NCBI GenBank assembly: GCA_902788485.1
Contig: CADAKI010000002.1
Coordinates: 25,205 to 89,204 of the forward strand
Reading direction: 5' to 3'
Source: an uncultured Pseudomonadota bacterium
Lineage (GTDB): Bacteria; Pseudomonadota; Alphaproteobacteria; Rs-D84
Length of the DNA stretch: 64,000 nt
This document shows positions 14,015 to 62,744 of this stretch, piece by piece. Positions within the stretch are counted from its first letter, which is position 1. The number at the start of each line of letters is the position of its first letter. A program made the translations under genes and the position numbers. A model generated the notes under the pieces. The model saw only the letters and a program-made list of their open reading frames with translations. It was not told the origin of the DNA and did no database searches.

Positions 14015-14024
14015 GAAAAATAAA

Positions 14025-24328: not shown

Positions 24329-25348
24329 TTAAAAACTGACCTTTAATGCGGTGGATAAAAATGGTGTTTCATCTGTCAATCCGATTGATGTCCACACCTC
24401 TAAATTCTCGCTGTATTTATACCGGAAAGACGCAATTCCCGTATGGTCATAAAAATGTGGTAAATCGTGATGCCAAATGCCGGTATGTGAATACATATAC
24501 GATAACGACACAGAATAATTCAAAATATCATAACTGACACCCGCGCCCGCCGATATGCCGTCTGACGGTGTGCCAATCGGGTTTTTATCATAAATCGCAA
24601 CGGCAGATGTGCCGAAAATCCAACTGTTATATTGTAAATTAAAACCGATGGATGTTTGCGCCCGCCAATCGGCCGACACATCCGGCAAATACGATGCAGG
24701 ACTAAATCCATCCGGTTTTTCCATAAATGATGCGCCCAACGACACGGCAGATTTTAATTTCCCATTTGGAAATCTAAATTTGACACCACCGTCAACCGCG
24801 TAATCATACGCATCACCGAATGCCGCAACCGACACACCATATTGACCGACATTTGTTGGCACCGTCACCAAATTTATACGCGGTGTTCCATCCCCCGATG
24901 ACACAGACACATTTGGTATAACATTTCCACGTGGCGACATGCGTTTATAAAACAAAGGTTTGTTATTTACACGCAACCCACCAACATCCGGAATTCCAAC
25001 ACTTAATTTTCGTGCCGCAGAATCGGTCAGTCCAACCTCTAATCTACCAAGATCTTGATTTTCATATAACGCGAACGCATCGTGTGATATATCGTGTCCG
25101 GCCAATGCCTCTTCGTCCCAGGCATATACCAATCCCAATGTTTGACCGCGTGCGACGGCATAATTGTATTGTGCGCGCAAATCAAAATCGCCCAAAAATA
25201 AAGTGTCACGAAATTTTGGTTCGATGATGCCTGCGGTTCCCGACGCATTAAATTTCAACGCACTGCGCCCGTTGTTATATTGCAATGCATGCCCCGGGTT
25301 TATGAAGCACATCCCAAACACCATCGCACACAATAAATATTTTTGCAT
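24329..25348 (-). CDS. outer membrane beta-barrel protein (porin-like), translationally coupled to rpoH
   Basis: Signal peptide; alternating amphipathic strands; C-terminal ...LKVSF aromatic terminus. Its start overlaps the rpoH stop (TAATG). Confidence 0.55.
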   Translation of the reverse strand: MQKYLLCAMVFGMCFINPGHALQYNNGRSALKFNASGTAGIIEPKFRDTLFLGDFDLRAQYNYAVARGQTLGLVYAWDEEALAGHDISHDAFALYENQDLGRLEVGLTDSAARKLSVGIPDVGGLRVNNKPLFYKRMSPRGNVIPNVSVSSGDGTPRINLVTVPTNVGQYGVSVAAFGDAYDYAVDGGVKFRFPNGKLKSAVSLGASFMEKPDGFSPASYLPDVSADWRAQTSIGFNLQYNSWIFGTSAVAIYDKNPIGTPSDGISAGAGVSYDILNYSVSLSYMYSHTGIWHHDLPHFYDHTGIASFRYKYSENLEVWTSIGLTDETPFLSTALKVSF

Positions 25349-28678: not shown

Positions 28679-31108
28679 TCAATTAACCTCGAACGGTGGG
28701 AAACAATCGCCACTGCCCGCCGGGCAACACGCAAATGGGTATTCCGAATCAGGTCCCATTTCCGTATATGTTTCGCCTGTACAGCATCCATTTGCATCGG
28801 GGGCCGTGCCATCTTCGCACAATAATGTGCCAACCGCATTTGTGCCCGCCGCCGGTTTTGGCTGATTAAATGGATTTATGATATTGTCATTTTCATCATA
28901 TTTTAATCCCAAAACCTGTTCATTATACGCCTTGGTTTGTTCTTCTGTTCGATTATCGGTGGTTCCGTATGTGTTTTGGAATGCCTGTTGTTGACTGTTA
29001 TAATATGCATCCTGTTTTGCCATATTAATTGCGGTATAATTTTTGGCCTGACAATACGCCAACACCGTTCTGTAATCGTATCCTGCGTTTGAAATTTCCA
29101 ACGCTTTATTTGAATCTGCGGTCCATACCCCTTTGGAATCTTGGGTGCAATATGGATCCAGGTTAAACGCACGAACTTGTCCAATCCATGAAGAATCTGT
29201 TTTATCAACAGTCATTTTATTTTTTACATCTTTCCACTCGCGCCGTTGTTGTTCGCTGTATTTTTCAAAAGCACATTTTTTGCCCGCATTTGGCCCTTTA
29301 GGGTCGCCACATGTTGCGATTAAATCAACAGGTGAATAAACGGTAATACGTGTTCCGGCGGCAATCGAAAATGGCGGCACGGTATTATCCAATGCATCAA
29401 CCATCAATTTTTGCGCAACCTTGTTCCATGCGGAAATAACCTCGTTCTTGGCCAATTCAGACGACCGCACAGTTCCCGATTGCACAACCGTGTTATTGTC
29501 CAAATCAATTTGATTTACAAATGTATCGGCAATTGGCGCAATCATATTTACCGCCGCCGGAATCACCGCCGTCAACAATGGCATAACCATTTGTTCGATA
29601 TAATCGGTACTGCCGTATCCGGGGACACCGACACGACCCTGGGAATCCGCGGAATACGGATCCTGGTCTTCGTCTTTGAAATTGAATTCGACGCCATCTG
29701 GACGAATAAATTGATACCATTTAATTTCCATACGTCCAATAGATTTATACGGCCCCGGCAAATTACCACGCAAATATCCCAATAATAATGTTCCGGTTGG
29801 AATAATGACCGTGCGTCCATTATCAGAATAAACATTTCTGTCCACCGTTGCACGAACCGGAATACCACTGCCGCCCTTGCAGTTACCGTCGTTATCGCAA
29901 TCATACACGGATGGGTCGGCACGAACCTCGGATACAATGGTTGCCGGAATTGGTTTGAATTGACGTAATATAAATGTGCGGTCGTACGGCATACTGGAAT
30001 ATACAGATTCCCCACCGCTTGCGGACCCTTTTAAAGATTCTGTATTTACTGTATTTGCCACAAAATTCATACCACTTTCATTTGGTTTCATTGTCTTTTT
30101 CAAATTATTCATCCCTTTGGGGGTGTATCCATCGCTTGCCGCCGGGCGCGTTGAAACACCGGTCGATTTTGAACGCAGGTTTGGCACCACATTTGTCGAT
30201 GTTGTGCGATGATCGGCATCGGTTCCAATCTTTGTCCGGCCGTCGATACTTGTAATAATGCCGGTATCCGGATTATAAACACCGGTTGGATTATTGCATT
30301 CCGTATCAGAAAACGGATGAAATTCATATCGACCCGATTTCGGTTTTATCCAACCAATTTGCACACCCGACATATTATATCCAGGCATCGCAAAATCAGA
30401 ACATTTTTCCGGTGCGCGCCGACGTGGTGCGGGGGCAGGTGTGGGTAAATTGTCTTCGAAAATATTTTTTTCGCCACCAACAATCGGTTCGGGCGTATCA
30501 AAATAATCGTCATCGTTAAAATCGTTATCATCGGCAACAATGTCGTCTTCAACAGGCGAGGGTGCAGGTTCCGGTTTCGATTCTGTTTTTTGTTTTTGGA
30601 TGTTGCCTGTGGCACTGACCGGGATAACAATTTTTGATGTTTGTAAATTTGTATCGCGCGAATCGTTTTTATCAAACCATTCAATCAACAATGTGACATC
30701 GCCCGCCACGTCCGTCGTGCCCGGGGTGAACGTCACATCCACAGAACACGGAATATCTTTATTTACCGGTTGATTCGTGCATCCCGCGGTATTCGCCGAA
30801 AATCCCGGTATAGAATTTTCCACACTGACCGAATCAACAATTGCATCATGGGTTGCATTTATACGAAAAACCTGGGTGCGTTTTGTCCCGATTTTAGTAT
30901 TTAAAAAATCTACATTGTTTGGTGTGACAGTCAATGTGATATCATACCCCGTATCCACAACCGGCGTCGGATTCTTGTTCGACCGCCCAATCAATAACAC
31001 CAACAATATCAACACAACAACAAATGCCGCAATCATCAACAGCCAACGAACCGCGGTTGGTGTCGTATCCAATGTTGATTTTATTTTATCTCTCATCGTA
31101 TTTGCCAT
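28679..31108 (-). CDS. virB10: VirB10/TrbI-family T4SS protein with N-terminal beta-rich domain, Pro-rich linker and ~200 aa Cys-rich C-terminal extension
   Basis: Cytoplasmic N-terminus plus TM (LLMIAAFVVVLILLVLLI). Pro-rich segment PEPAPSPV...PTPAPAP. Conserved VirB10 C-terminal barrel motifs (RTVIIPTGTLLLGYLRGNL; ...TRITVYSPVDL). The 809-aa length is about twice that of canonical VirB10. Confidence 0.7.
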   Translation of the reverse strand: MANTMRDKIKSTLDTTPTAVRWLLMIAAFVVVLILLVLLIGRSNKNPTPVVDTGYDITLTVTPNNVDFLNTKIGTKRTQVFRINATHDAIVDSVSVENSIPGFSANTAGCTNQPVNKDIPCSVDVTFTPGTTDVAGDVTLLIEWFDKNDSRDTNLQTSKIVIPVSATGNIQKQKTESKPEPAPSPVEDDIVADDNDFNDDDYFDTPEPIVGGEKNIFEDNLPTPAPAPRRRAPEKCSDFAMPGYNMSGVQIGWIKPKSGRYEFHPFSDTECNNPTGVYNPDTGIITSIDGRTKIGTDADHRTTSTNVVPNLRSKSTGVSTRPAASDGYTPKGMNNLKKTMKPNESGMNFVANTVNTESLKGSASGGESVYSSMPYDRTFILRQFKPIPATIVSEVRADPSVYDCDNDGNCKGGSGIPVRATVDRNVYSDNGRTVIIPTGTLLLGYLRGNLPGPYKSIGRMEIKWYQFIRPDGVEFNFKDEDQDPYSADSQGRVGVPGYGSTDYIEQMVMPLLTAVIPAAVNMIAPIADTFVNQIDLDNNTVVQSGTVRSSELAKNEVISAWNKVAQKLMVDALDNTVPPFSIAAGTRITVYSPVDLIATCGDPKGPNAGKKCAFEKYSEQQRREWKDVKNKMTVDKTDSSWIGQVRAFNLDPYCTQDSKGVWTADSNKALEISNAGYDYRTVLAYCQAKNYTAINMAKQDAYYNSQQQAFQNTYGTTDNRTEEQTKAYNEQVLGLKYDENDNIINPFNQPKPAAGTNAVGTLLCEDGTAPDANGCCTGETYTEMGPDSEYPFACCPAGSGDCFPPFEVN

Positions 31109-31137
31109 AATTATCTATCCATTTTTTTGTGATAAAA

Positions 31138-32673
31138 TTATTGGATTCTGACCACACGACATCCCGAAACCTGGAATTTCATCAGTTTATCACATAATGT
31201 TTGTGCCTCGTCGATATCCGCCAATGGACCAATGCGCAAACGATACATAGTTGCCGACGATACACCCGAACCCAAATCGCCCACACCTTCGGTGTCAATC
31301 GCAAAGAACACTTTGTTTTGATATGGAGTCAAAATTCCGGCACCACCATCGCCACTGAATTTAACCAATAAATCGTTCCAATATTCTTCCAATGCTTTTG
31401 GTGATCTATCAGACGCAAATTCCACCGCCACACCCGATTGATTTGATTTTATCAACGGAATATTTGATTGTGGCAGGTACGAACCGGCGGTATCCCGTGC
31501 GGTTGGAATCATTGTTGTGCCACCCGATGTGGCACCCCCAGACATTGGCACCGCCCCCGGCATATTCATTTGTGCATTACCATATCCCGCCGGCATATAA
31601 GCACCGGTTGCCATTGGATTTTGTACATTTGACATATACATCGGTGTTGCGGTGTAATCCATTGCACCGCCATACATCGCCGACATATCTGCATCATACG
31701 CAATATTATTTAATGATTGCCCAGACATCATGCTTTGCGCAACATTTGCCTCGGCCAACGCCATAACCGACGCGGTATCCGCAATCAAGAACGGCTTTTC
31801 ACGTTTTTTAATACAAACAATGCGTTGACCACTGCGTAAAACCATATCGCCCACGGCCTCGACAATTAATAATCTGCCGTCTTGGCCATCGGTGCGGAAA
31901 CCAACCGGGGATTCGCCACCTTCTATCAACAAAGACACCACAGGACGTTGAGTCATGGCAATAACTTTATCGCCAAAATCAATGTATGTAAATATTTTGT
32001 CGCGCCACACGCGTTCCGGCGCAATTACATAATCGTCCGGGTTTGGAACGAAAATATCCAAATCAAAACGGAATTCAGACGGGTCGATTTTCATCGATTT
32101 TATCCACGCATAATCTTCGCCATCAACACCAATGGTATTGGTGGTTGGTGCCGCTTTGCGGAATATAGAATTCATCCCACCGGATTGGCGTTGTGTGGCA
32201 GGTGTTGCATTTGCAATTGTTGCGCCATTGTCCAAAACAACATCCACCTGGGAATAAGAAATTTCATTTGCATCGACGGTGCCTGGACTGGACAAATAGA
32301 ATATGTATTTATTTCCCGATTGTCCCGTCACAATCATGTTGGTGTCCGATTCTGATGCTTCGATGGGGGTGATGTAAAAAGTACGATCGCCCTGGGTTGC
32401 CTCGATTTGATACAAAGATTGGTCGCCAACAACCGCATCGGCAATTTGTTCGCCATTTGGCAATGTTACCATCGTCACCATACCATTACGCAACTTTAAT
32501 GGCAAAACCGTTCCGGTTGACCACCCCAGTTGTGCATATCCAGGTTTTGTACTGCCGGTGGCCATGTTTGCCGTTGGGTTTTCCCATGCGCGTTGCACCA
32601 CGGCATTTGCGATGTCAACGGACATCAAAAACAAACAAGAAACAATTCCGTTGATTTTCAAAAACTTTAACAT
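31138..32673 (-). CDS. virB9: VirB9/CagX-family T4SS protein fused to a Met/Gly/Tyr-rich linker and a C-terminal SPOR domain
   Basis: Signal peptide. VirB9 N- and C-domain beta-sandwich regions (FYITPIE..., TDGQDGRLLIVEAVGDMVLRSGQRIVCI). A low-complexity region rich in M, G, A and Y. Terminal ~75 aa (…YRLRIGPLADIDEAQTLCDKL…CRVVRIQ) is SPOR-like. Confidence 0.65.
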   Translation of the reverse strand: MLKFLKINGIVSCLFLMSVDIANAVVQRAWENPTANMATGSTKPGYAQLGWSTGTVLPLKLRNGMVTMVTLPNGEQIADAVVGDQSLYQIEATQGDRTFYITPIEASESDTNMIVTGQSGNKYIFYLSSPGTVDANEISYSQVDVVLDNGATIANATPATQRQSGGMNSIFRKAAPTTNTIGVDGEDYAWIKSMKIDPSEFRFDLDIFVPNPDDYVIAPERVWRDKIFTYIDFGDKVIAMTQRPVVSLLIEGGESPVGFRTDGQDGRLLIVEAVGDMVLRSGQRIVCIKKREKPFLIADTASVMALAEANVAQSMMSGQSLNNIAYDADMSAMYGGAMDYTATPMYMSNVQNPMATGAYMPAGYGNAQMNMPGAVPMSGGATSGGTTMIPTARDTAGSYLPQSNIPLIKSNQSGVAVEFASDRSPKALEEYWNDLLVKFSGDGGAGILTPYQNKVFFAIDTEGVGDLGSGVSSATMYRLRIGPLADIDEAQTLCDKLMKFQVSGCRVVRIQ

Positions 32674-32697
32674 ACTTCCTTCCTTTTTATTTTGTTT

Positions 32698-33420
32698 TTA
32701 TAACTCGTCTGCTTGGCGTGTCCAATTCAGTGGGTCATTTTGTTCCAAATCTAAAACATTTCCGGCGGCATCAATAACATTATAATCACTGATGCGAAAA
32801 CCCAATGGGTTTTCCATGCGTTCCGCCCACCGAACCGCATTTCCGGCGTTTGATTCCAATTTTACACGCAATTTATATGGTTTGCGATATTCCATATCCC
32901 CCAGTGGTCCATAATTACACACATATGTAAATGTCACGATATATGTATCTGCATCGCGTGAATTTACATCGTTTACGACCGATAACCGACCCGCCGGATA
33001 TTCAACAGCACAACTGATATCAAATGCCTCGTCCAAATCTTGGCGAATGATGTTCACCATGTCTGTCATAACAAATTTTCCAAAAACCGCATCTGTGGAC
33101 CGGGTTTTGATAACGCCGTCATCGCTGTATGCCCATTTTTCGCGCATTTTAGATACATCGGGCACAATTTCATTTCGTTCACGAACATATTCGCGAATAA
33201 ATTGATGTTTATACGCATCCAGGTTGTCCGTCGGCATCTCGGTCAGTGTCAATTCTTTGTCACGAATATTTTGTGTGGTCAAGAAAAACACCTGGGGACG
33301 ATTTAATGGGAACATTTTATCCAATGTCCAAACCAAAACCCCCAGCACGACCAACGCCGTTGCCATAACCAAGGTCATTAATCTAGATATCAAAACTGGC
33401 GGTTCTATGCGTTCTGGCAC
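32698..33420 (-). CDS. virB8: VirB8-family T4SS protein (GTG start)
   Basis: Bitopic topology with a periplasmic NTF2-like domain. It is the first gene of the B8-B9-B10 operon. A GGGGGAG RBS lies 8 nt before the GTG. Confidence 0.65.
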   Translation of the reverse strand: MPERIEPPVLISRLMTLVMATALVVLGVLVWTLDKMFPLNRPQVFFLTTQNIRDKELTLTEMPTDNLDAYKHQFIREYVRERNEIVPDVSKMREKWAYSDDGVIKTRSTDAVFGKFVMTDMVNIIRQDLDEAFDISCAVEYPAGRLSVVNDVNSRDADTYIVTFTYVCNYGPLGDMEYRKPYKLRVKLESNAGNAVRWAERMENPLGFRISDYNVIDAAGNVLDLEQNDPLNWTRQADEL

Positions 33421-45622: not shown

Positions 45623-45708
45623 TAAATAAAAAAATAAATATGGCAGATTTGGCGGTCCTGTGTCATAATGGGGGTGTCAAATCTGTTTTTTTATAAAAGG
45701 CATAAATC

Positions 45709-46755
45709 ATGACCAAGGTTATTTCCATTGATGCATTCGGCGGCGACAAAGGGCCAAAAGTTGTTTTGGGCGGAATAAACCAATTTTTATACCAAAATGG
45801 CGAGGGTTCAGTCCATTTCCGCATATTTGGCAAGCAGGCGGTTTTGAACAAATTGCTGGCGAAATTTCCGCGCGTTATGCGTAATTGCACGGTGATTGAT
45901 GCCCCCGATGTTATTCGTGGTACGGACAAAATTCGCGATGTTATCCGCCACGCCGACGGGACATCGATGTTCATGGCAATCAAAGATGTGCGCGCCGGCA
46001 ACGCATCCGCGGTGGTCAGTGCGGGCAACACCGGGGTTTTAATGTCGTTGTCTAAATTGGCATTAAAAACGATTGACGGCATATCGCGCCCGGCGATAAC
46101 AACAATGTTGCCATCGGGCGGCGGTGATTCCCGCGTGGTGGTGTTGGATTTGGGTGCAAATGTTCAATGTGACGCGCAAAATTTATTTGACTTTGCGATA
46201 TTGGGTTCTGTGTATGCGGAAACGATTGGGCACATGTCGCGCCCGCGTGTTGGCATTTTAAATATTGGCACCGAAGAAACCAAGGGCAACGAAACCCTGC
46301 AAGAATTAAACCGCGTGTTGACCGAACATCGCGATGAATTGCCGTATGAATATATCGGCTTTGTCGAACCAACCGACATCAGTGCCGGCCGGGTCCAGGT
46401 TGTCGTCACCGACGGCTTTACAGGCAATATTGTTCTAAAAACGGTCGAGGGTACCGCAAAATTGATAAAACGCGTTATCATGGAAAATTTCAAGAAATCC
46501 GTGCTGGCGATAATTGGTGGATTTTTCTTGGTTCACGTATTCAAACGGTTAAAGCATAAAATTGACCCGCGTTCATATGCCGGCGCGACATTTTTGGGAT
46601 TAAATGGGTTTTCGGTTAAAACCCACGGAAACAGTGACGCATTGGCATTTTCAAATGCAATCAAATATGCGGTGGATTTATCAAATGCCGATTTTAATGG
46701 CGCAATCCGTGAACGTGTTGCGGCGGTTGCGCGCATTCGTGATAAATTGGTGTAA
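45709..46755 (+). CDS. plsX: phosphate acyltransferase PlsX
   Basis: PlsX family: N-terminal IxIDAxGGD and a GNTGV-type motif; 348 aa. Confidence 0.9.
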   Translation: MTKVISIDAFGGDKGPKVVLGGINQFLYQNGEGSVHFRIFGKQAVLNKLLAKFPRVMRNCTVIDAPDVIRGTDKIRDVIRHADGTSMFMAIKDVRAGNASAVVSAGNTGVLMSLSKLALKTIDGISRPAITTMLPSGGGDSRVVVLDLGANVQCDAQNLFDFAILGSVYAETIGHMSRPRVGILNIGTEETKGNETLQELNRVLTEHRDELPYEYIGFVEPTDISAGRVQVVVTDGFTGNIVLKTVEGTAKLIKRVIMENFKKSVLAIIGGFFLVHVFKRLKHKIDPRSYAGATFLGLNGFSVKTHGNSDALAFSNAIKYAVDLSNADFNGAIRERVAAVARIRDKLV

Positions 46756-46758
46756 AAA

Positions 46759-46780
46759 ACCGGCGACGCCGGTTTTTTTA
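46759..46780 (+). terminator. rho-independent terminator after plsX (ACCGGCG-a-CGCCGGT + T7)
   Basis: GC stem plus a T-run. Confidence 0.65.
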
Positions 46781-46858
46781 TTTAGTTTTTGTTTCCTGGG
46801 GGGACAATCCGATACACAATATTTGGTTGGTGATTTATAATAAAACCATACAACCAAA

Positions 46859-47105
46859 GGAACGAGCTATGGAAAAAATGAAAAAAAATCCCCCCAAAAA
46901 AATTTCAAAAAGTACATCTGTCAAAAAATTAGATGCTAAAAAAATGGTTAAAAAACCGGCGCGTTCAAAACGTGTTAAACCAAATCCAAACCATTGGATA
47001 GAATCTCGCGCCCGTTTGGTAAAAATATTAGAGGCATCCGGTTTTGTGCCCGAACAATGCGCAGTAATGATAACGCATCGTAAAAAAGACGCGCGTTCTA
47101 TATAA
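46859..47105 (+). CDS. Lys-rich small hypothetical protein
   Basis: AAAGGAA RBS 6 nt before the ATG. Basic N-terminal half (KKNPPKKISKSTSVKKLDAKKMVKKPARSKRVK). The track ORF begins at 46827. Confidence 0.35.
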
Positions 47106-47116
47106 ATTTTGTGTAA

Positions 47117-47160
47117 ACAACAAAAAAACCGCCGGCAATTACTTGACGGCGGTTCCTCCT
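47117..47160 (-). terminator. terminator for the minus-strand gene at 47188-47520 (ACCGCCG-loop-CGGCGGT then a T-run on the minus strand)
   Basis: 7-bp GC stem with a 12-nt loop. On the minus strand TTTTTTTGTTGTTT follows it. Confidence 0.4.
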
Positions 47161-47187
47161 CTCCTTCCGGTATAATCCGGAAACTGT

Positions 47188-47520
47188 TTATGCCGCACGG
47201 ACGTGACGTTCGTGATTTTCCGTATCGTTGTCCATAATCTTTTTTGCTTCGGCAAACACCATTTCTTTGACTTTCAACGCCAAATCATGTGTTTCCAAAC
47301 TTTCGGCGGCAACATCAAAGTTGTCTGTTCTGATTTGCAAAGACACATACGCGCCAACCAGTGACGCACGTGGTAAATCTTCGATAGAACGTGGTGCATT
47401 ATTGTGGCCAATGTGCAATTCGTCACTCAATGACACGATTTGTCTGTCTTGATTTACCCAAACGGTGGTATTTAAAACCTGGTCCAGTGCAATCATGATT
47501 TGTTTAATATTTTTTTGCAT
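47188..47520 (-). CDS. hypothetical protein, possibly ribosome hibernation factor (HPF/RaiA)-like
   Basis: 110 aa. The C-terminal segment FDVAAESLETHDLALKVKEMV loosely matches HPF AEGQDMYAAIDGLIDKL. Weak. Confidence 0.3.
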   Translation of the reverse strand: MQKNIKQIMIALDQVLNTTVWVNQDRQIVSLSDELHIGHNNAPRSIEDLPRASLVGAYVSLQIRTDNFDVAAESLETHDLALKVKEMVFAEAKKIMDNDTENHERHVRAA

Positions 47521-47808
47521 TGTGTGGGTCCCTCCTTTCTGGGTGTGTTGGTTTTTTGGTGGTTTAACCTGTATTTACATACGTATTTACAAAATCAAAC
47601 CATCGTTTGGTTGTTTTTATTTTGTTTTTTGCCGGAAAACCAAGGTTTTCAGACGATTTAGAACTCTTTCCCCATGTCTATACAAACAGTTTAGAACAAA
47701 AACGAATCGCAGGTCAAGAGAAAAAATGATTTATTTCAAAAATATTTTAAAAAATATAAATTTGTCATTAAAAACCATAAAATCCCATAATTTGATTATA
47801 AATTGTCA

Positions 47809-47837
47809 TTGACAATGAAAAAGTCACATGCTATTCT
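47809..47837 (+). promoter_or_regulatory. candidate mraZ promoter TTGACA-17-TATTCT overlapping the palindrome CATTGACAATG
   Basis: Perfect -35 embedded in an 11-bp palindrome, about 55 nt upstream of mraZ. Confidence 0.4.
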
Positions 47838-47891
47838 GATGTCCAGAGGTACGAAAACGGCGGGAAAAACGCCCAAATTTGGAATATACAA

Positions 47892-48335
47892 ATGTCATTG
47901 TTTCTCTCATCTTATGAAAATCGTTTGGATAGCAAGGGGCGCATTTCTGTCCCGGCCCAATTTCGTACCGCGTTAAATAACGAAAAATTCGCGGGTGTCG
48001 TCCTGTATCGGTCGTTCACAAATAAATGTATCGAGGGATTATCCATGTCGCGTATGGAATCTTTGGCGGCGGCAACCGACAAAATGGGCGTGTTTGATAA
48101 CGCGTTGGATGATTTGTCGGCGATGTTGTTTGCAGATGCCCGTCCTTTACAATTTGATGTGACGGGACGTATTGTAATCCCGGCGGATTTATTGGCGCAT
48201 GCAGAAATTGATGATACGGCATTATTTGTCGGTCGTGGAAACAGTTTTCAAATATGGAACCCGGTGGCGTTCCGCGCGGCGCAAAATAAATCATTGGAAA
48301 ACTTGCGCGCGTCGCGGCCAAATTTGGTGGTGTAA
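47892..48335 (+). CDS. mraZ: transcriptional regulator MraZ
   Basis: Two MraZ repeats containing DxxGR motifs (DSKGRISVP, DVTGRIVIP). Confidence 0.85.
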   Translation: MSLFLSSYENRLDSKGRISVPAQFRTALNNEKFAGVVLYRSFTNKCIEGLSMSRMESLAAATDKMGVFDNALDDLSAMLFADARPLQFDVTGRIVIPADLLAHAEIDDTALFVGRGNSFQIWNPVAFRAAQNKSLENLRASRPNLVV

Positions 48336-48380
48336 AACAATCTGAAATATTTCGACAGATTATATTATGCAAAATAAAAA

Positions 48381-48402
48381 CCCCGTTTCCGGGGCTTTTT
48401 TT
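48381..48402. terminator. bidirectional rho-independent terminator (CCCCG-tttc-CGGGG + T7) between mraZ and the convergent 726-aa gene
   Basis: An A-run precedes the hairpin and a T-run follows it. Confidence 0.65.
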
Positions 48403-48418
48403 GTTTTATCTGGTTGCC

Positions 48419-50599
48419 TTATTCGCATGTCACAGAAGTTTTTCTCTTTCCGCGCGAATTTGTGTTATCCCATTCACATGCGCCGGTCAGTATTCTTTGT
48501 GACACCGTGCAATACACCTTGGTAGATGCGATGTCGGTTTGATCGGTCACATTGTTGCATACAGCGTTGATTTCATCATTGCTTGAAACTGTTTCGATAC
48601 TGGCATATGTTCCGGTCACCCATGTTTTCAATGCGTTGGGTGATATCGCGCCAAACACATTTCCATTTACCGACATGCATGTTTTTATTTGTGCATAGCA
48701 TGAATTGATTGCGGTTCTGGATTTTGTGTTATCCGGGTTTGCATCATCGTAATTATTTGATGTCAAACAACTCTGAACATCACCGATACAATCCGTTGCG
48801 TATGCTGTTAACAATTCGTCTTGTTGTGTCTTGATTTGAACCAATGCACGTTGCAAGAAATTTTTGATAACTTCATTGTCGGCTTTGTATTTACCTTTGG
48901 AATCGTATGTGTAATCTTGGCATTGATTTAACACAGACATGCACATACCGTAATCTTTGTTTGTTTTATCATCGTGATATCCGATTTTGTTTTGTAAAAA
49001 TGCAGACATTTTATCAGATGAATCTTTTGCATTTGTCAAACTAACCGTATTGTTTATGTAATTCACCAACGTGATATAATCGTCATTAGACACAGAATAC
49101 CATGGGTTTTTGTCGTTGTCGGTTTCCCATGTGCTGAACAAATTTTCATGTGAATATGTTGAACTGATTGTTGCATTGGTGTCTTCGGTGTTATTGCCCG
49201 GCATACTGCCAACGACGACGGCGCCATTTACAATATATTGACCGGTTGGGTCCAAACATCCTTCGTAATCAGAACCGCATACATAATCATCTTGCATGCA
49301 TGATTCCAACGCACTGACGCAGCCACGCAAATCGTAAGAATTTTTGTTTTGTGCAACCATCAAACGGGCTTTTTTCAAAACTTCCTTGGCATTTGCAACG
49401 GTTTGTGTCATTTGTTGATTTGATTCGGTTAATGCGCGTTCGTATGCCAAACATGCCTTGTCGATTTCCAAATCGTATGAATTTGTCACAACGGCGGCAT
49501 CAACACCTTGGGCGGTGCAGGCATTCAACACAGATGCCTTGCAACGTGCAGTTGCGGTTTTATATAAATTTTCGCCGCGTTGATTTGAAATACTGTTGGT
49601 GTTGTTTGTTGTGGTGGTCATAAATGAACTTAAATCAAAACCAAAATCACCCATATCGAAATTCAATAATCCCGACAAATCGAAATTCATTGCGCCGGTC
49701 GTGTCAGATGTGGTTGCAGTTCCACTTTTTACATCAACAACCATGCGTTTGACTTTGTCCAAACTGGAACGGATTGCGGAATTATCTTTGGCGTTTTTCA
49801 TTGATAATTCGGCCTCGGTCTCGTTAAACAATGTTGTGATTTGGTCCGCAGACAATCCGATGTATTGAATATTGCGTGCAACATCTTGTAATGCTTCGGT
49901 TGCGGCTTCTAATGCAACCTCGGTCTTTTCATAATTTTTCAAATTTTTGGAACATGTGCAACGACCCTGGTTATCATCCAATGCGTCGCAATAATTATCC
50001 ATACATGATGCGTATTGTGCCTGACAATATTCGGTCAAAGCCTTCATCGTGTTCATTTCGTTGGTGGTTTCCGTCGCAGATTCCGGTGTTGCAACCGGTG
50101 TTGCCGCAACATTTGCCGCACGGATTGAACCGCTGCGTGTTGCGATTGATGCGCGTGATGTTGTTCCACGTGATTGAACGGTTGCGTTTGGATTATATAA
50201 TGTTGTTGTTGTATTCAATGTTGTCGCACGTGCCGCCGAACCCGGACGTTGTTGCGAAACCGGTGCGGTTGCGCCTGTTGCGCGACGTGTTGATACAGAT
50301 GTTGTTCTGACGGGTGACGACACATTACGAACCGAAACCCCGCGTGAACGCACCGTGTTTGTACGTGTTGTTGGTACGCGTGATGTTGTTCGCGCCGTCG
50401 TCCGTGCCGTTGTCCGCGGTGTCATGCGCGCGTTTGTTGATTGTGCCATGGAATCATTTTTTTCTTCAATGGCGCCTGTATCGACATCGTTTAATTCAAC
50501 ATCAGAAAATGTCAAATCTTCGTCGTAATATACCGGTGCAACCTCAGCAAATGCGGGTAAAACCAACAAACTGCCAATCACAACAAACAATCTTTTCAT
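48419..50599 (-). CDS. large secreted Cys-rich protein with Thr/Arg/Ser-rich repetitive N-terminal region
   Basis: Signal peptide MKRLFVVIGSLLVLPAFA. Low-complexity RTTARTTARTTSR... segment (~150 aa). About 30 Cys, mostly in pairs 6-10 residues apart. A central coiled-coil-like segment. No recognisable catalytic motif. Confidence 0.6.
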   Translation of the reverse strand: MKRLFVVIGSLLVLPAFAEVAPVYYDEDLTFSDVELNDVDTGAIEEKNDSMAQSTNARMTPRTTARTTARTTSRVPTTRTNTVRSRGVSVRNVSSPVRTTSVSTRRATGATAPVSQQRPGSAARATTLNTTTTLYNPNATVQSRGTTSRASIATRSGSIRAANVAATPVATPESATETTNEMNTMKALTEYCQAQYASCMDNYCDALDDNQGRCTCSKNLKNYEKTEVALEAATEALQDVARNIQYIGLSADQITTLFNETEAELSMKNAKDNSAIRSSLDKVKRMVVDVKSGTATTSDTTGAMNFDLSGLLNFDMGDFGFDLSSFMTTTTNNTNSISNQRGENLYKTATARCKASVLNACTAQGVDAAVVTNSYDLEIDKACLAYERALTESNQQMTQTVANAKEVLKKARLMVAQNKNSYDLRGCVSALESCMQDDYVCGSDYEGCLDPTGQYIVNGAVVVGSMPGNNTEDTNATISSTYSHENLFSTWETDNDKNPWYSVSNDDYITLVNYINNTVSLTNAKDSSDKMSAFLQNKIGYHDDKTNKDYGMCMSVLNQCQDYTYDSKGKYKADNEVIKNFLQRALVQIKTQQDELLTAYATDCIGDVQSCLTSNNYDDANPDNTKSRTAINSCYAQIKTCMSVNGNVFGAISPNALKTWVTGTYASIETVSSNDEINAVCNNVTDQTDIASTKVYCTVSQRILTGACEWDNTNSRGKRKTSVTCE

Positions 50600-50725
50600 A
50601 TTTTTCTCCTACATTTTTATAAATATTTTACCATATTTCAGGGTATAAAACAAATAAAAAAAGTGCATTAATTGCACTTTGCCTGTACCCCCATAGCGCA
50701 AAGCGCGACGGGGCAAACTTTGAGA

Positions 50726-51076
50726 TTAGTGGTGCGCCACAATATGCAAAATAACACTGATGATAAATAAAACGGTTATGATTCCCAATAATATTTTCTG
50801 GGGCACATGATGATCGTCGTCACAATGGTCGTCATTGCAACATGGACAATCGCGCAAAACAAAAATCCAGGACATGCCCAACATTATGCTGGACAAAACA
50901 AAAATCCATGGTTCAATCCATTCAGGTATGTATTCGGTATGGGCAACCTCGGGCGCAAAAAGTCCCACAATTCCCATTACCACCGGCAACACACAGCAAA
51001 AAATGTGTGGCAAAATTGTGGCAATAATTCCAAATTTTACAACTTTGTTTTTCATATTGAAACCTTTATATGGCAC
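50726..51076 (-). CDS. small His/Cys-rich membrane protein (possible metal-binding)
   Basis: Three TM segments. Motifs FCCV, CPCCNDDHCDDDHH and a C-terminal HH. Confidence 0.45.
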   Translation of the reverse strand: MPYKGFNMKNKVVKFGIIATILPHIFCCVLPVVMGIVGLFAPEVAHTEYIPEWIEPWIFVLSSIMLGMSWIFVLRDCPCCNDDHCDDDHHVPQKILLGIITVLFIISVILHIVAHH

Positions 51077-51174
51077 CGCGTCCTAAACTGGCGACGATAA
51101 ATTAAACTTTCGCGCCTGTCGTCGCAAAACTTTAATTTATGGTACTTGTGCCACGAAGCACCAGCGGTGCGAAG

Positions 51175-51250
51175 TGGTATCCCCAGCAGGAATCGAACCT
51201 GCATCAGAGGTTTAGGAAACCCCCGTTCTATCCAGTTGAACTATGGGGAC
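51175..51250 (-). tRNA. tRNA-Arg (anticodon CCU)
   Basis: The minus-strand sequence GTCCCCATAGTTCAACTGGATAGAACGGGGGTTTCCTAAACCTCTGATGCAGGTTCGATTCCTGCTGGGGATACCA folds as a cloverleaf. Anticodon loop TT-CCT-AA. It closely resembles E. coli tRNA-Arg(CCU). Confidence 0.9.
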
Positions 51251-51371
51251 AGTTCCGATTATTTTAATCGAATAAAAATATAAAATCAACCGTTTGCAAA
51301 AAAACAAATAAATGTTGATTTTTTTATATGGCCCGATATAATAATTACGAAAAAACAAAGGGAAATTTGAA

Positions 51372-51659
51372 ATGGCAACAATAACCCGTAACGATTTGGC
51401 GTCCAACTTGCGCGACCGATTTGGTCTGACGGCAACGGATGCATACAAAATGATTGATATTATTTTCCAAGAAATTGGTGATGCGTTAACTAATGGCGAG
51501 GATGTAAAGCTGTCTGGTTTTGGGACGTTTAAAATTTTAACAAAACCTGCGCGCATCGGTCGCAATCCGAAAACTGGTGTGCCGGCGGTGATATCTGCGC
51601 GTCGTGTGACGGCATTTCGCCCCAGTGCCGAATTTCGTGCCCGTGTCGGAAATAAATAA
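51372..51659 (+). CDS. ihfA: integration host factor subunit (HU/IHF family; alpha-like)
   Basis: GFGTFxxxxxxxRxGRNPKTG arm motif; 95 aa. Confidence 0.75.
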   Translation: MATITRNDLASNLRDRFGLTATDAYKMIDIIFQEIGDALTNGEDVKLSGFGTFKILTKPARIGRNPKTGVPAVISARRVTAFRPSAEFRARVGNK

Positions 51660-51666
51660 TTCAAAA

Positions 51667-51691
51667 AACCGGTGTTATACCGGTTTTTTTA
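51667..51691. terminator. bidirectional rho-independent terminator (AACCGGT-gttat-ACCGGTT flanked by A6/T7)
   Basis: Lies between the convergent ihf and pepO genes. Confidence 0.65.
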
Positions 51692-51727
51692 TTGGTTATC
51701 GCGACGAATTCGCCAGGCCTAGACGGA

Positions 51728-54856: not shown

Positions 54857-56326
54857 ATGAGGAAGGATTTAATCACAATTTTGTTGGGTTTTTGCGCGTC
54901 GGTACCGGCAATGGCCAGTAACGAAGGTGTCCCATCATACTATCAAAAAAATGCAACATCAATGAATCGGGCGGGTTATGGTTCGTACCAAAACCGTGGT
55001 TATCAAAACTATGTCACACCCGGTTCTAAACAGGTCGTGTCGTCCAAAACCACCACGTACCAGGTTCCATCCGCATCTGCGGCAAATGTGTCACGCGGTG
55101 CGACAACAAAAAATGGTATTGCGCGTGCGGCATCGGACGAAAATGGTTTTTCGGTCTATGGTGGATACAGTCGACGTTTTGCGGATTTTGAATTCACAAC
55201 ATCGGTCAATTCTGTTTTGGAATGGGACGATATGCAATTTAATGAATTGACGGCGGGTGCGCGGTATAATTTTTCAATTCGTAATTTCGATATGATGGCA
55301 TTTGGTGAATACACATATGGCAAAATGGCAACGGGCGGTCTGTCCATGGATTACGATTTGCGCCCATATAACGACAGTATTTTGAACGAGGGGATATTTA
55401 CAATTTCTGTTGGTGACCAATCTGGTGATTCGCATCATATGCGTTTTGGAATTGGTGCGCGTAATATTTGGGATATTGGTGGTTGGAAATTGTCGCCGGT
55501 GATTGGTTATGAAATTTTCAAACATAACCTGCAAATGAACGACCATTATTACCCGAACCAGGGCGTATATATCCCATTGATGACCGCCGATGGTTATTAT
55601 GTGTTTGGTAACGCAACCAACGAAACATATTTTCCGGTTGCGCAATCTGATGTCAATGCATACGCGGAAAACGACAATTATTACCAGGTTTGTGTTTCCC
55701 CCGCGGAAATCAAGGTTGCATCGATAAACAGTGCGGGCGGTATTGAAATGAATGATTTGCCGGCACCAACCGACCCGTATTCGACATTGCCATGGGGGGT
55801 ATATTATGACGAATGTGTTGTGATTGGTGGTGATGGTCCAATCATGATTTCGGGAAAAACACATGAATATAACACAACATGGTCTGGATTTTTTGTTGGT
55901 TTGGAAATTGAAAAGCAAATGACATGGAACGATAAATTGCGTTTTTATGGTCAAATCAGTATGCCCAAATATTCGTCCGAGGGTATTTGGCCAAACCGTA
56001 CCGATTGGCAACAGAGCCCCAGTTTCCTTGACGAGGGCGACGGTGGCGCATTGGCATACCAATTAGAAATGGAATATATAATGAAATTGTCTGACCGGTT
56101 GAATTTATCGTTAAAGGCCGACACAAATTATTTCCATATTGGTGAAATTGGTGGTGAAATTTATTGGGCACCATACACCGAATATACATACACCGATAAT
56201 GGCGATGGTACGGTTGATATTATGGCAACAACATATCCGGGCTATACCGAAAGTGTGGCCCAGGCATTAAAAGAGGCCACATGGCGTTCATTCGGGTTGT
56301 ATTTGGGCCTGAAATATTCGTTTTAA
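54857..56326 (+). CDS. outer membrane beta-barrel protein (489 aa)
   Basis: Signal peptide (…VPAMA), Gly/Tyr-rich amphipathic strands and the terminal LGLKYSF aromatic motif. Confidence 0.5.
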   Translation: MRKDLITILLGFCASVPAMASNEGVPSYYQKNATSMNRAGYGSYQNRGYQNYVTPGSKQVVSSKTTTYQVPSASAANVSRGATTKNGIARAASDENGFSVYGGYSRRFADFEFTTSVNSVLEWDDMQFNELTAGARYNFSIRNFDMMAFGEYTYGKMATGGLSMDYDLRPYNDSILNEGIFTISVGDQSGDSHHMRFGIGARNIWDIGGWKLSPVIGYEIFKHNLQMNDHYYPNQGVYIPLMTADGYYVFGNATNETYFPVAQSDVNAYAENDNYYQVCVSPAEIKVASINSAGGIEMNDLPAPTDPYSTLPWGVYYDECVVIGGDGPIMISGKTHEYNTTWSGFFVGLEIEKQMTWNDKLRFYGQISMPKYSSEGIWPNRTDWQQSPSFLDEGDGGALAYQLEMEYIMKLSDRLNLSLKADTNYFHIGEIGGEIYWAPYTEYTYTDNGDGTVDIMATTYPGYTESVAQALKEATWRSFGLYLGLKYSF

Positions 56327-57443: not shown

Positions 57444-58406
57444 ATGTCTATAAAAGTTCGTGATTTCGAAGTGCGTCTGACGCGTACCAAAGAAGAACGT
57501 CGCCAGGTGCGTCAATTACGTTATGCGGTTTTTGTTGAAGAAGAGGGCGCATCTGCCACCGAAGAACAAAAAAATTTACGCGAAGAATATGATTCTTATG
57601 ACCGTTTCGCGGAATATTTGGGTGTGTTTCACAACGGAAAAATTGTTGGAACATATCGTATTATAAATCGTGATGCGGCTGAAAAAATGGGCGGTTTTTA
57701 TACCGAAACAGAATTTGATATTTCAAAAATAAAAAAATCTGGTGCAAATATTGTGGAAATGTCGCGTGCATGCGTTGCGCCCGAATATCGCGATAATGCG
57801 CTGGTTATGCGTTTGTTATGGGTTGGTTTGGGTGAATATATTGTGCGTAATAAAATCGGCATTGTGTTTGGTGTTGCGTCATGGACGGGAACAAATCCGG
57901 CAATGTCTGCCCAAGCAATTTCGTATTTATATTACAATCATTTGTCGCCATTGCGTTTGCGTGCGACGGTGGAATCAACCAAATTGGCACCGGGTGTAAA
58001 TCCGAAATTGACCCGTATGAACATTTTACCAGAAGTTTTTGTTGATGCAAACATTGCGCGTCGTGAAATGACTCCATTGGTCAAGGGTTATTTGCGTATC
58101 AACGCGACATTTGGACGTGGCGTGTTTATCGATAAACCGTTTAATTCATACGATGTGTTTGTGATGTTGGAAACACGCAAAATGGATGCCGCATATAAAA
58201 AACGTTTCTTTGGCACGGATGACCGTTTCGAAGGCGAAGATTTCGAATTGCCGACAAACTTTATCCAAACACTGGGCAAGGTTATTACATCCCCGGCCAA
58301 GGGCGCGATGCGCGTTGTGCGTTCTGTGTTTGCATTTTTATTGCGTGAGGACGCGGCGGATGCGGAATTAATTGCCGAAGATAAACCATCCGAAGAAGAG
58401 GAATAG
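57444..58406 (+). CDS. olsB: hemolysin-like N-acyltransferase, ornithine lipid synthesis OlsB-like
   Basis: GNAT-like hemolysin-family fold (LRYAVFVEE...). A PlsC-type acyltransferase gene lies 4 nt downstream, matching the olsB-olsA gene pair. Confidence 0.5.
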   Translation: MSIKVRDFEVRLTRTKEERRQVRQLRYAVFVEEEGASATEEQKNLREEYDSYDRFAEYLGVFHNGKIVGTYRIINRDAAEKMGGFYTETEFDISKIKKSGANIVEMSRACVAPEYRDNALVMRLLWVGLGEYIVRNKIGIVFGVASWTGTNPAMSAQAISYLYYNHLSPLRLRATVESTKLAPGVNPKLTRMNILPEVFVDANIARREMTPLVKGYLRINATFGRGVFIDKPFNSYDVFVMLETRKMDAAYKKRFFGTDDRFEGEDFELPTNFIQTLGKVITSPAKGAMRVVRSVFAFLLREDAADAELIAEDKPSEEEE

Positions 58407-58409
58407 AAC

Positions 58410-59252
58410 ATGAAAATTATGGCGGATAAATGCCGGGTAAATGTTTTCGATACAATCGTCGCATTTTTTCGTGCGGTGCTGTTTGTATTGGTTGTTTTAA
58501 TCCAGGTTCCAATTCTTTGTATAATTCCGCGTGGTCGTTTTTCGGTAAAATATATGCGATTTTTTATGTGGACATTGTGTGTGGCGTCTGGGGTGCGGGT
58601 GCGCCGTCATGGAAAATTGACGCGTAAACGTCCATTGGTGTGTATTTGCAACCATATATCGGTGTTTGAATTGATGTCTATGCCGGTTGGATACGGGTGT
58701 TCATTTGTTGGAAAAATTGATATTGCCAGTTATCCATTGGTCGGTTGGATTGCAAAAAAATTTGGTGTTGTGTTTGTTGACCGTCGTCCATCGCATGCAC
58801 GTGATGCATTGGCGGTTGTATCGAAACAAATGCATACGGCGTCTTATCCGGTTGTTATTTTCCCCGAAGGTACCACAACCAACGGCGCATATGTCAAAGA
58901 ATTTAAATCTTCATTGTTCAATATTGCCGAAGAAATCCCGGATTTGACAATTCAACCAATGGTGATAACATATCGGACGCGTCGCAACAAATGTGTCAAT
59001 GATTGTGTTTTGGCAAACGATTATGCATATTTCGATAATGTTAAACAAGACATGGGTCCAAAATGCGAGGTTGAACGCAGTGCGTTTGGTCAAATATTTC
59101 ATATTGCGCAACTGGGCGGGATGACGGTGCATATAACGGCACTGGAACCGGTTTCTGTTTCGGGTATGGACCGCAAAGAAATTGCAAAAATGTTGCATGA
59201 AATCGTATCGAACAAATATATGGAAATAAAAGATAAAGAGATAAAGAAATGA
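58410..59252 (+). CDS. olsA: lysophospholipid/lyso-ornithine lipid acyltransferase (PlsC family), OlsA-like
   Basis: NHxSxxE acyltransferase motif (CNHISVFE) and FPEGTTTNG motif. Confidence 0.5.
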   Translation: MKIMADKCRVNVFDTIVAFFRAVLFVLVVLIQVPILCIIPRGRFSVKYMRFFMWTLCVASGVRVRRHGKLTRKRPLVCICNHISVFELMSMPVGYGCSFVGKIDIASYPLVGWIAKKFGVVFVDRRPSHARDALAVVSKQMHTASYPVVIFPEGTTTNGAYVKEFKSSLFNIAEEIPDLTIQPMVITYRTRRNKCVNDCVLANDYAYFDNVKQDMGPKCEVERSAFGQIFHIAQLGGMTVHITALEPVSVSGMDRKEIAKMLHEIVSNKYMEIKDKEIKK

Positions 59253-62159: not shown

Positions 62160-62744
62160 ATGAAACACAAAATTTTATCTGTATTATTTGGTTTGTTTGT
62201 TGTGTGTGGGGCGGGTCGTGCGGCCGATATAACGATTTATTATTCGCCAACATGTCCGCATTGTCATCATATGCGCGATTATGCATCGAACAATTTTATT
62301 TATGAATATCCGACAATAAACATCACAATGGTTGATGTGACGGTACCGGAAAATCGTGGATTGTTTTTTGATGTGATAAAATCATGTGATTTTTCATCTG
62401 GTGGTGTGCCGGTAATTAAAATCGGCGACAAATGTTTCCAAGGTTTTGCCGAATCTATGGTGGATGATATGCGCACCGCGATAGAGGTTGATATGGATGA
62501 CGCTGCAAAAAAATCTGCGGCGGCGGTCAAAAAATCAATTGCCGAAAACGGTGATGAATATCGTGATGCGCACCCAACACCGGTTGCAACCATCACGGAA
62601 TACAGTGCGCCGGCAACAGATGAAAATCCGGAAAAAAAAACGGCCGCATCTGACAACAAATGGGCATCATGGGGTTTAATAATATTGGCATTGGCGGTAT
62701 TGGGATTCAGTATTTTTGTCGCCGGTGGTAAATCAAGAAAATAA
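62160..62744 (+). CDS. secreted thioredoxin-fold protein (CPHC motif) with C-terminal membrane anchor
   Basis: Signal peptide MKHKILSVLFGLFVVCGAGRA, a YYSPTCPHCHH redox motif and a C-terminal TM WASWGLIILALAVLGFSIFVAGG. The start is set at the ATG after the AAAGGAG RBS rather than the track start 62106. Confidence 0.45.
   Translation: MKHKILSVLFGLFVVCGAGRAADITIYYSPTCPHCHHMRDYASNNFIYEYPTINITMVDVTVPENRGLFFDVIKSCDFSSGGVPVIKIGDKCFQGFAESMVDDMRTAIEVDMDDAAKKSAAAVKKSIAENGDEYRDAHPTPVATITEYSAPATDENPEKKTAASDNKWASWGLIILALAVLGFSIFVAGGKSRK

Follow-up and report, generated by a model that had tools for sequence, protein, structure and literature searches.

The window analyzed here, 64,000 nucleotides of contig CADAKI010000002.1 (assembly GCA_902788485.1) from an uncultured bacterium of the alphaproteobacterial order Rs-D84, carries on its minus strand, at 48419..50599 with the stop codon included, a complete gene for a protein of 726 amino acids. 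Our analyses demonstrate that this protein is targeted to the Sec pathway, that it is rich in cysteines bearing a signature of pairing, and that it combines a conserved helical core with variable ends. It is a type A member of a superfamily of at least four divergent branches (types A to D) with one common layout, and it belongs to no described family: the fold, the motifs, and the restriction to one lineage are new, whereas bacterial envelope or surface proteins that are secreted, rich in Cys, and variable in their outer region are known as a general kind. The explanation that we favor, tentatively, is that the protein is exported by Sec and serves, in the envelope or at the surface, as a disulfide-stapled scaffold for contacting other cells.

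An earlier, sequence-only reading of this DNA had picked out the open reading frame (ORF), credited it with a clean signal peptide, placed it in no known family, and offered a surface protein, an adhesin, or a secreted substrate as its possible nature. The ORF is a real, intact gene and no pseudogene, with full-length intact orthologs in at least 290 species; the signal peptide is borne out by inspection, and neither profile searches nor structural comparison returned a significant match. Of the proposed nature, the secreted and probably disulfide-rich character is supported, and a surface or adhesin function is what we infer as the best reading.

The protein and its cysteines

The strongest conservation lies at the very start of the protein. 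Measured as the frequency of the majority residue among type A orthologs, it reaches 0.88 in the signal peptide (residues 1 to 18, MKRLFVVIGSLLVLPAFA followed by E; 50546..50599, minus strand), the highest value of any segment; that a signal peptide should be better conserved than the mature core is unusual. The segment consists of MKR, a 14-residue hydrophobic core (LFVVIGSLLVLPAF), and AFA before the E, and it has the features of a Sec type I signal peptide: A-x-A at positions -3/-1, KR instead of the RR of a twin-arginine signal, and, the first Cys of the protein being residue 192, no lipobox Cys. The mature N-terminus (residues 19 to 50; 50450..50545, minus strand) opens with a conserved EVAPxYYD, is acidic, with 11 D+E and 1 K/R, and is predicted to be disordered; its conservation is 0.54. 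It is followed by a polybasic, Arg/Thr/Ser/Ala-rich region (residues 51 to 185; 50045..50449, minus strand) with a composition of 18 R, no K, no D, 3 E, 33 T, 16 S, and 19 A. With pLDDT below 50, this region is modeled as disordered, and its overall conservation is 0.48, several of its Arg positions being conserved at 90% or more. The basic disordered region had been recognized from the sequence alone, together with RTTA-type repeats, and the latter proved to be local: Tandem Repeats Finder reports one 12-nt tandem repeat of 2.8 copies (50385..50418, unstranded; score 47), encoding (ARTT)n, and the remainder of the region shows compositional bias without repeats.

All cysteines of the protein, 22 in number and not about 30 as estimated earlier, come after residue 191. 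The spacing C-x6-C recurs among them (192/199, 427/434/441/448, 553/560, 604/611, and 634/641), and C-x7-C occurs once (353/361). Eighteen are kept in at least 97% of the 249 relatives that cover the core, down to approximately 25% identity. As there are only 2 His in the whole protein, metal sites are unlikely. Cys pairs at short spacing had been taken as a sign of a disulfide-rich module repeated several times; the pairs do recur, but hhalign comparisons of the sub-profiles against each other gave no domain-level internal repeat (probabilities of 10% or less), and it is only the short Cys motif that is reused. An attempt to derive disulfide partners from the joint loss of cysteines in divergent members gave no signal, the cysteines being too conserved and the few losses mostly coming from truncated fragments.

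The conserved core is made of two helical domains and a head. Helical Cys domain I (residues 186 to 288; 49736..50044, minus strand) is defined by invariant columns and by modeled helices spanning residues 172 to 288, has a conservation of 0.80, and bears the hallmark C192-x6-C199-M-D-x2-C204-x9-C214-x-C216, which is common to types B, C, and D. Helical Cys domain II (residues 339 to 422, with C353, C361, and C383; 49334..49585, minus strand), modeled as helices at 337 to 418, is the best-conserved part of the core, with a value of 0.84 and 85–94% identity between tandem paralogs. Residues 289 to 338, between the two (49586..49735, minus strand), are conserved at 0.72 and yet predicted to be disordered, with pLDDT below 50; they hold a twin acidic-aromatic motif, FDLSGLLNF...GFDLSS...SISNQRGE, that recurs in types B and C. 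This segment probably folds upon binding something, be it a partner, another subunit, Ca2+, or the Arg-rich tract. The globular alpha/beta head (residues 423 to 665; 48605..49333, minus strand), delimited from an AlphaFold2 model of residues 423 to 726, has a conservation of 0.66 and 10 invariant Cys (427, 434, 441, 448, 553, 560, 604, 611, 634, and 641). The type A motifs, all invariant or at least 97% conserved in relatives, are found here in their order: signal peptide, basic disordered region, C-x6-C-M-D-x2-C-x9-C-x-C, helical segments, and C-x6-C-M-Q-x5-C-G-x5-C.

The C-terminal tail (residues 666 to 726; 48422..48604, minus strand) is, with 0.35, the least conserved part; in our protein, it has 4 Cys and four short beta-strands (694 to 719) and sits where relatives bear extensions of up to 1677 residues. 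Across 250 sequences, the part after W660 is 5 to 1677 residues long, with a median of 77, and exceeds 150 residues in 74. Tails contain 6.5 Cys per 100 residues, and the number of Cys is even in 179 of the 204 tails that have any (88%; p approximately 7e-30, uncorrected for relatedness); the 74 long tails hold on average 30 Cys, with 74% of them having an even count. Such even counts are the expected signature of disulfide pairing in an oxidizing compartment. The long members, of 1000 to 2338 residues, continue into Cys-rich arrays of great diversity that contain GGTW..C.C and CxxC..GxYC modules. Two of them (P0216 and P0226) have Listeria-Bacteroides repeats (PF09479/TIGR02543), a kind of repeat typical of proteins at the cell surface; these are the only extension modules recognized by a model, in these two sequences alone. 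The same contrast between core and ends is seen within single genomes: tandem type A copies are 72–94% identical in the signal peptide and 77–94% in the helical core but only 10–42% in residues 19 to 50 and 20–52% in the disordered region, and their tails differ in length and are essentially unrelated.

Distribution of the superfamily

Relatives are numerous. A word-indexed search gave at least 1170 of them, at 48–99% identity and 91–100% coverage, and these full-length orthologs mark the gene as complete; those that have names are all "hypothetical protein" from metagenome-assembled genomes (MAGs) labeled Alphaproteobacteria or Proteobacteria, none with a precomputed Pfam domain. Searched exhaustively with a profile, 1.84 billion cluster representatives gave 744 matches at E ≤ 1e-3 and 248 at E ≤ 1e-30. 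When one genome per GTDB species was scanned with a motif-seeded search, the family was found in 290 genomes, so that at least 290 GTDB species carry it. The names of these genomes are Candidatus Enterousia, uncultured Alphaproteobacteria, or "Rickettsiales," and their sources are the rumen and the gut of ruminants, horses, birds, and humans. NCBI places Candidatus Enterousia in Alphaproteobacteria incertae sedis, and in GTDB it corresponds to the order Rs-D84 (PMC12306168). The superfamily has thus far been seen only in gut Alphaproteobacteria of the Rs-D84/Enterousia type.

Several superfamily members are present per genome of approximately 0.9 Mb. In a family HMM scan of 89 fetched loci, with synteny counts taken from 80 related loci, tandem full-length duplicates were found in 10 of the 80 type A loci, a much more distant paralog was found within 10 kb in three type A loci, and two type B loci held three members (L085) and two members (L087); no second family member was found in the 64-kb window. 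The distant paralogs of types C and D share the signal peptide, the basic Arg/Thr/Ser/Ala-rich tract, and the motif C-x6-C-M-D-x2-C...C-x-C, and type D also keeps the later C-x6-C-M-Q...C-G-x5-C. Types B and D are large themselves, with at least 1055 and at least 1522 matches, respectively, all unannotated. A type A protein (P0059, ACLRFO_01075) and a type D protein (P0407, ACLRFO_02945) have the locus-tag prefix ACLRFO in common, which indicates that the two types co-occur in one MAG; for types A and B in one genome, the evidence is circumstantial, consisting of the adjacent accession series JAWPOD/JAWPOE/JAWPOF.

Two observations concern the surroundings of relatives. The 2338-residue member P0141 (L086, 1-9849) stands beside prophage- and defense-like genes, namely those for a terminase, a ParB-methylase, Fic, an ADP-ribosylglycohydrolase, and a ZorA-like/OmpA protein, which points to a variable genomic region. 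Type B members have in their vicinity stretches of four or five ORFs in a row, of 400 to 480 residues and without a Pfam family (L087, 15074-21674; L089, 1563-5417), and these may represent another lineage-specific gene family.

Predicted structure and searches for known relatives

A full-length AlphaFold2 model, built with an alignment of 97 sequences, is disordered at residues 1 to 171 and 289 to 338, has long helices at 172 to 288 and 337 to 418, and is well defined from residue 423 onward. Modeled alone, residues 423 to 726 form a mixed alpha/beta structure that ends in four short strands and has a pLDDT of 93.1 and a pTM of 0.86. Foldseek found no PDB analogue for the latter model (best E = 2.1, TM at most 0.19) and none in PDB or BFVD for the protein, the PDB search giving only nonsignificant coiled-coil matches (best E = 0.69).

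Sequence searches were equally negative. No significant match was obtained for the protein in Pfam (E up to 10), NCBIfam, or PHROGs, and for 22 members of the family, Pfam at E up to 1 gave no family, Sel1 and Chlam_OMP6/DUF11 included; Sel1 repeats were likewise absent from both the protein and these 22 members. For types B, C, and D, Pfam and NCBIfam yielded only coiled-coil or low-complexity noise, the family profile gave only low-complexity noise against PDB sequences, and sequence search found no solved relatives of the long extensions in P0125, P0141, and P0226. For type V secretion, whether as autotransporter, inverse autotransporter, or TpsA, which would call for a beta-barrel of 12 or 16 strands or a TPS domain, there was no Pfam match, and the model contains short strands only and no barrel. 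A phage or mobile origin was not indicated either: tblastn found nothing in 50,697 phage records, IMG/VR had no match either, and the PHROG matches were nonsignificant. Two specific candidates were rejected, the alpha-helical pore-forming toxins (ClyA/HlyE, Hbl/Nhe, and YaxAB/XaxAB), for which Pfam had no match and the best Foldseek hit to PDB was the coiled coil at E = 0.69, and homology to OmcB/Chlam_OMP6, as Pfam at E up to 10 detected no Chlam_OMP6 or DUF11 domain. The papers on Enterousia and Rs-D84 do not mention the family.

The gene and its neighborhood

The gene reads as an independent, monocistronic unit, because it has a terminator-like hairpin on each side as well as a putative promoter and ribosome-binding site of its own. 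A putative extended -10 element, TGgTAAAAT (50633-50625), and an AGGAG ribosome-binding site (50610-50606), together spanning 50606..50633 on the minus strand, were read from the sequence as consensus matches, the latter lying 6 nt ahead of the ATG. Upstream, a terminator-like hairpin (50660..50680, minus strand; terminator scan and sequence) closes a merC-like gene. Downstream, a terminator scan found a 10-bp G+C-rich hairpin (48376..48399, both strands) that resembles a bidirectional intrinsic terminator, has T-runs on both strands, and stands between the gene and the convergent mraZ (47892-48335), with which it is shared.

The window genes include rpoB, rpoC, the L32 gene, plsX, mraZ, the family gene, the merC-like membrane ORF, and the genes for HU and an M13 peptidase, as well as a radical-SAM HemW-like gene, a Pom-family porin gene, and an SLT_2 transglycosylase gene; the same set surrounds the relatives. 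Amid these otherwise syntenic genomes, the segment from plsX to the M13 peptidase (window 45700-51700; loci L005-L084) is a rearrangement hotspot, where three modules, mraZ with its divergent neighbor orf110, the HU gene with its divergent merC-like neighbor, and the family gene, appear in many orders and orientations. The merC-like gene adjoins the family gene in 51 of the 80 loci, on either side, traveling with HU, and mraZ lies within 10 kb in 36. Synteny across the 80 loci revealed no operon partner or fixed neighbor. The sequence-only reading had seen the gene as standing, after mraZ and a terminator, in place of the dcw cluster. The hairpin is indeed there, and rsmH, ftsL, and ftsI do not follow mraZ in the window, mraZ standing alone throughout the lineage, but a tie to mraZ or the dcw cluster is not supported: as the order and orientation of the modules are shuffled among related loci, the adjacency to mraZ is incidental. 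A dcw cluster gene was therefore ruled out as a candidate, the family gene being convergent to mraZ with a terminator between them and the arrangement varying over the 80 loci. Genes for PBP1, MraY, and FtsW are located elsewhere in a related contig (L089).

Some of the neighbors deserve a record of their own. mraZ is always divergently paired with a conserved 110-residue ORF (47188-47520), and the pair moves as a unit in relatives; the ORF has no Pfam family, its weak FtsK_gamma match having E = 0.02. The merC-like membrane ORF of 116 residues (50726-51076, minus strand) has CC in its first transmembrane (TM) helix, a CPCCNDDHCDDDHH loop, and a weak MerC match (E = 0.0025), and it is always divergent from the HU gene (51372-51659). 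An outer-membrane protein matching Pom (Protochlamydia outer membrane protein; Pfam, E = 2e-10) is encoded at 54857-56326 on the plus strand and is syntenic in relatives. So is the pair that follows on the plus strand (57444-59252), an Acetyltransf_5 (OlsB-like) gene and then an acyltransferase (OlsA-like) gene, which suggests ornithine-lipid synthesis. Three consecutive ORFs at 12678-14879 on the plus strand (228, 217, and 284 residues; the first with 6 Cys) and one of 339 residues at 24329-25348 on the minus strand have no Pfam family, and several of these four have hydrophobic N-terminal segments.

Envelope machinery and the organism

Next to cvpA, at 62160-62744 on the plus strand, the window encodes an exported protein with a signal peptide, the sequence YYSPTCPHCHH with a DsbA-type CPHC, a VPV cis-Pro loop, and a C-terminal TM helix. 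It is glutaredoxin-like, the NCBIfam match to GlrX_YruB having E = 2.7e-7, below the curated cut-off, and that to a PDB glutaredoxin E = 0.004, and it is, by its sequence, a candidate envelope or periplasmic thiol-disulfide oxidoreductase. No DsbB or VKOR was seen within the 64 kb.

The core of a type IV secretion system (T4SS) is encoded on the minus strand by genes for a VirB8-like protein (32698-33420), a VirB9/CagX protein with a C-terminal SPOR domain (31138-32673), and a VirB10/TrbI protein of 809 residues (28679-31108); together they make up an rvh-like T4SS core that a genome of approximately 0.9 Mb has kept. The VirB10 homolog has 16 Cys, including a CC...CC...C tail (residues 764 to 802) that is unusual for VirB10, and this suggests heavy use of disulfides in the envelope. 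SPOR domains, which bind septal peptidoglycan, are fused not only to VirB9 but also to an S11 D-Ala-D-Ala carboxypeptidase (8068-9207, plus strand). The window also encodes YidC, a SurA-like chaperone, LpxD, and a BamB-like protein.

Bacteria of the Rs-D84/Enterousia type occur widely in the guts of humans, ruminants, horses, and birds, have genomes of less than 1 Mb, and lack respiration as well as almost all biosynthesis and standard transporters (PMC12306168). The lifestyle proposed for Enterousia is that of an obligate symbiont or parasite that depends on a partner, with hypothetical membrane-bound proteins as the mediators of interactions with other cells (PMC12306168).

Interpretation

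How could such a protein work? After export, the cysteines would form approximately nine intramolecular disulfides, and these would hold the head and the long helices rigidly together as a head on a stalk; the exported thioredoxin-fold CPHC candidate encoded in the same window could catalyze disulfide formation. The Arg-rich tract, being nearly free of acidic residues, could act as an electrostatic tether to anionic polymers, be they the cell's own lipopolysaccharide (LPS) or peptidoglycan or the surface of a partner. The variable Cys-rich tail, which extends to hundreds of residues and up to 1677 in paralogs and orthologs, would be the exposed, diversifying contact module, and the family would serve to attach the bacterium to other cells or to host material, or to bring it into contact with them. 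That the protein is exported and oxidized is argued by the conserved signal peptide, the 18 kept Cys, the even Cys counts in the tails, and the CPHC protein; the surface is favored by the hypervariable Cys-rich extensions, the Listeria-Bacteroides repeats, and the expansion of paralogs in a partner-dependent lineage; and a role in contact is proposed because the organism is without respiration, without standard transporters, and without most biosynthetic capacity. Two points weigh most against a contact scaffold: no device for outer-membrane translocation or anchoring has been identified for the protein, and the route of disulfide oxidation is hard to see in an anaerobe without a respiratory chain.

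The former of these points counts in favor of a lattice inside the envelope, in which Cys-rich proteins under the outer membrane, in the periplasm or at the inner leaflet, would be cross-linked by disulfides into a rigid layer like OmcA/OmcB in the chlamydial outer membrane complex, with peptidoglycan or membrane lipids as the ligands of the basic tract. We regard this as unlikely but as the rival to be taken most seriously. It fits a very Cys-rich protein that has a Sec signal only and several paralogs per genome, the syntenic gene for a Protochlamydia-type Pom porin 4 kb away, and the presence of other Cys-rich envelope proteins such as the VirB10 homolog with its 16 Cys. On the other hand, a substitute for the sacculus is not obviously needed, as the peptidoglycan machinery is kept (SLT and S11 carboxypeptidase; RodA/MreB/MrdA according to PMC12306168), and extensions to 1677 residues with surface-type repeats, as well as the rapid divergence of both ends, fit poorly under the outer membrane. 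The even Cys counts, moreover, point to intramolecular pairing rather than to free Cys for cross-linking. Pertussis toxin is released from the periplasm by the Ptl type IV secretion system, and alpha-helical pore-forming toxins insert into target membranes via long helical hairpins; by analogy, the protein could be a released effector or toxin whose helical hairpins, with residues 289 to 338 at the tip, insert into or bind a partner membrane after release from the periplasm through the T4SS encoded approximately 15 kb away. Although the VirB8, VirB9, and VirB10 genes (28679-33420), the conserved yet unmodeled segment between long helices, and the proposal that the lineage draws metabolites from other cells speak for such a role, we find it improbable: the segment carries approximately five Asp in 25 residues and is therefore not membrane-like, the gene is unlinked to those of the T4SS, neither Pfam (E up to 10) nor Foldseek shows similarity to ClyA, Hbl, YaxA, or Tc, and multicopy scaffolds with huge repeat tails are atypical for toxins.

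The remaining two alternatives are weaker still. The head (residues 423 to 665) is a confidently modeled globular domain with many invariant polar residues, for example D450, S465, N558, Q561, R584, and D594, and could be imagined as a periplasmic or extracellular enzyme of a new fold. The protein has, however, only two His, and no catalytic arrangement of His/Glu is conserved; conservation is lower in the head than in the helical stalk (0.66 against 0.80–0.84), the opposite of what is expected of a catalytic domain, and types C and D have a large part of the head replaced but retain the helical Cys motifs, so that we consider an enzyme very improbable. A role in cell division linked to mraZ, in which the gene would stand in for the missing dcw genes or complement them, has in its favor that the gene adjoins mraZ in the window, convergently, and is largely refuted by synteny: the intervening terminator leaves no shared transcript, the three modules come in many orders and orientations with mraZ close by in fewer than half of the loci, the constant partner of mraZ is the divergent orf110 and not the family gene, and the PBP1-MraY-FtsW genes are found elsewhere. 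We give this idea hardly any credence.

Returning to the contact scaffold, a bolder extension would make the superfamily of types A to D the main cell-contact apparatus of Rs-D84/Enterousia, a polybasic-tethered, disulfide-stapled stalk presenting hypervariable Cys-rich modules, by which these Patescibacteria-like Alphaproteobacteria would hold on to other gut microbes or host cells and obtain metabolites from them; in this full form, we think it rather doubtful. Whatever its exact function, the retention in a tiny genome of several large genes of one secreted Cys-rich superfamily with fast-evolving ends places their products first among the candidates for the interface to the partner. In antibody targets, binding assays, and a structural target with no solved analogue, the family provides a handle on the proposed symbiotic or parasitic lifestyle, and it raises the question of how nine or so disulfides, or more, per molecule are oxidized in an anaerobe that has no respiratory chain.

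Comparison with known systems

A parallel in overall design may be drawn with chlamydial OmcB, the 60-kDa Cys-rich protein (CRP; Pfam Chlam_OMP6/DUF11), an envelope protein with a signal peptide, a basic N-terminal stretch, and a Cys-rich body. Our protein likewise has a signal peptide and a basic stretch ahead of a Cys-rich body, would also be located in the envelope, is highly conserved in a host-dependent lineage, and has a Pom porin as a neighbor. OmcB is, however, built of beta-sandwich DUF11 repeats, whereas the family protein is mainly alpha-helical with an alpha/beta head and has no Pfam match even at E up to 10, and its lineage keeps the peptidoglycan genes.

The stapling of helices is known from elsewhere. 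In Helicobacter Hcp, secreted proteins of Sel1-like repeats, pairs of helices are stapled by disulfides from regularly spaced Cys, and the family protein has regularly spaced Cys too and, we infer, stapled helices; it differs in having no Sel1 repeat or periodic domain repeat, in its far larger size, and in its disordered basic N-terminus and variable tail. In the twin Cx9C/CHCH proteins of the mitochondrial intermembrane space, Cys two helical turns apart on one face cross-link neighboring helices in an oxidizing compartment. The principle would be the same here, with putative Cys pairings, but the spacing is C-x6-C, the helices are many, the protein is 726 residues long and Sec-exported, and there is no homology.

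As for the order of parts, an N-terminal targeting signal, an extended or charged spacer, a long helical stalk, and a globular head also make up stalk-and-head surface proteins such as enterococcal PrgA and the periplasm-spanning TolA/TonB, and TonB has an acidic stretch and then a basic spacer, just as residues 19 to 185 are first acidic and then basic. PrgA is the subject of a preprint (10.1101/2020.06.18.156562). In the family protein, the signal is probably cleavable and not an anchor, as its 14-residue hydrophobic core ends in AFA; there is neither homology nor an LPXTG, and the huge variable Cys-rich tails have no counterpart in those systems. It is for these tails that variant Cys-rich surface proteins provide the parallel. 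The window protein itself, with a tail of 61 residues and 4 Cys, lacks the relevant modules, which are limited to the extensions of its relatives, but there, after the same core, the long members bear CxxC...GxYC as in Giardia VSP-like and furin-like proteins, GGTW..C.C, and, in P0216 and P0226, the PF09479/TIGR02543 domains of Listeria-Bacteroides repeat proteins.

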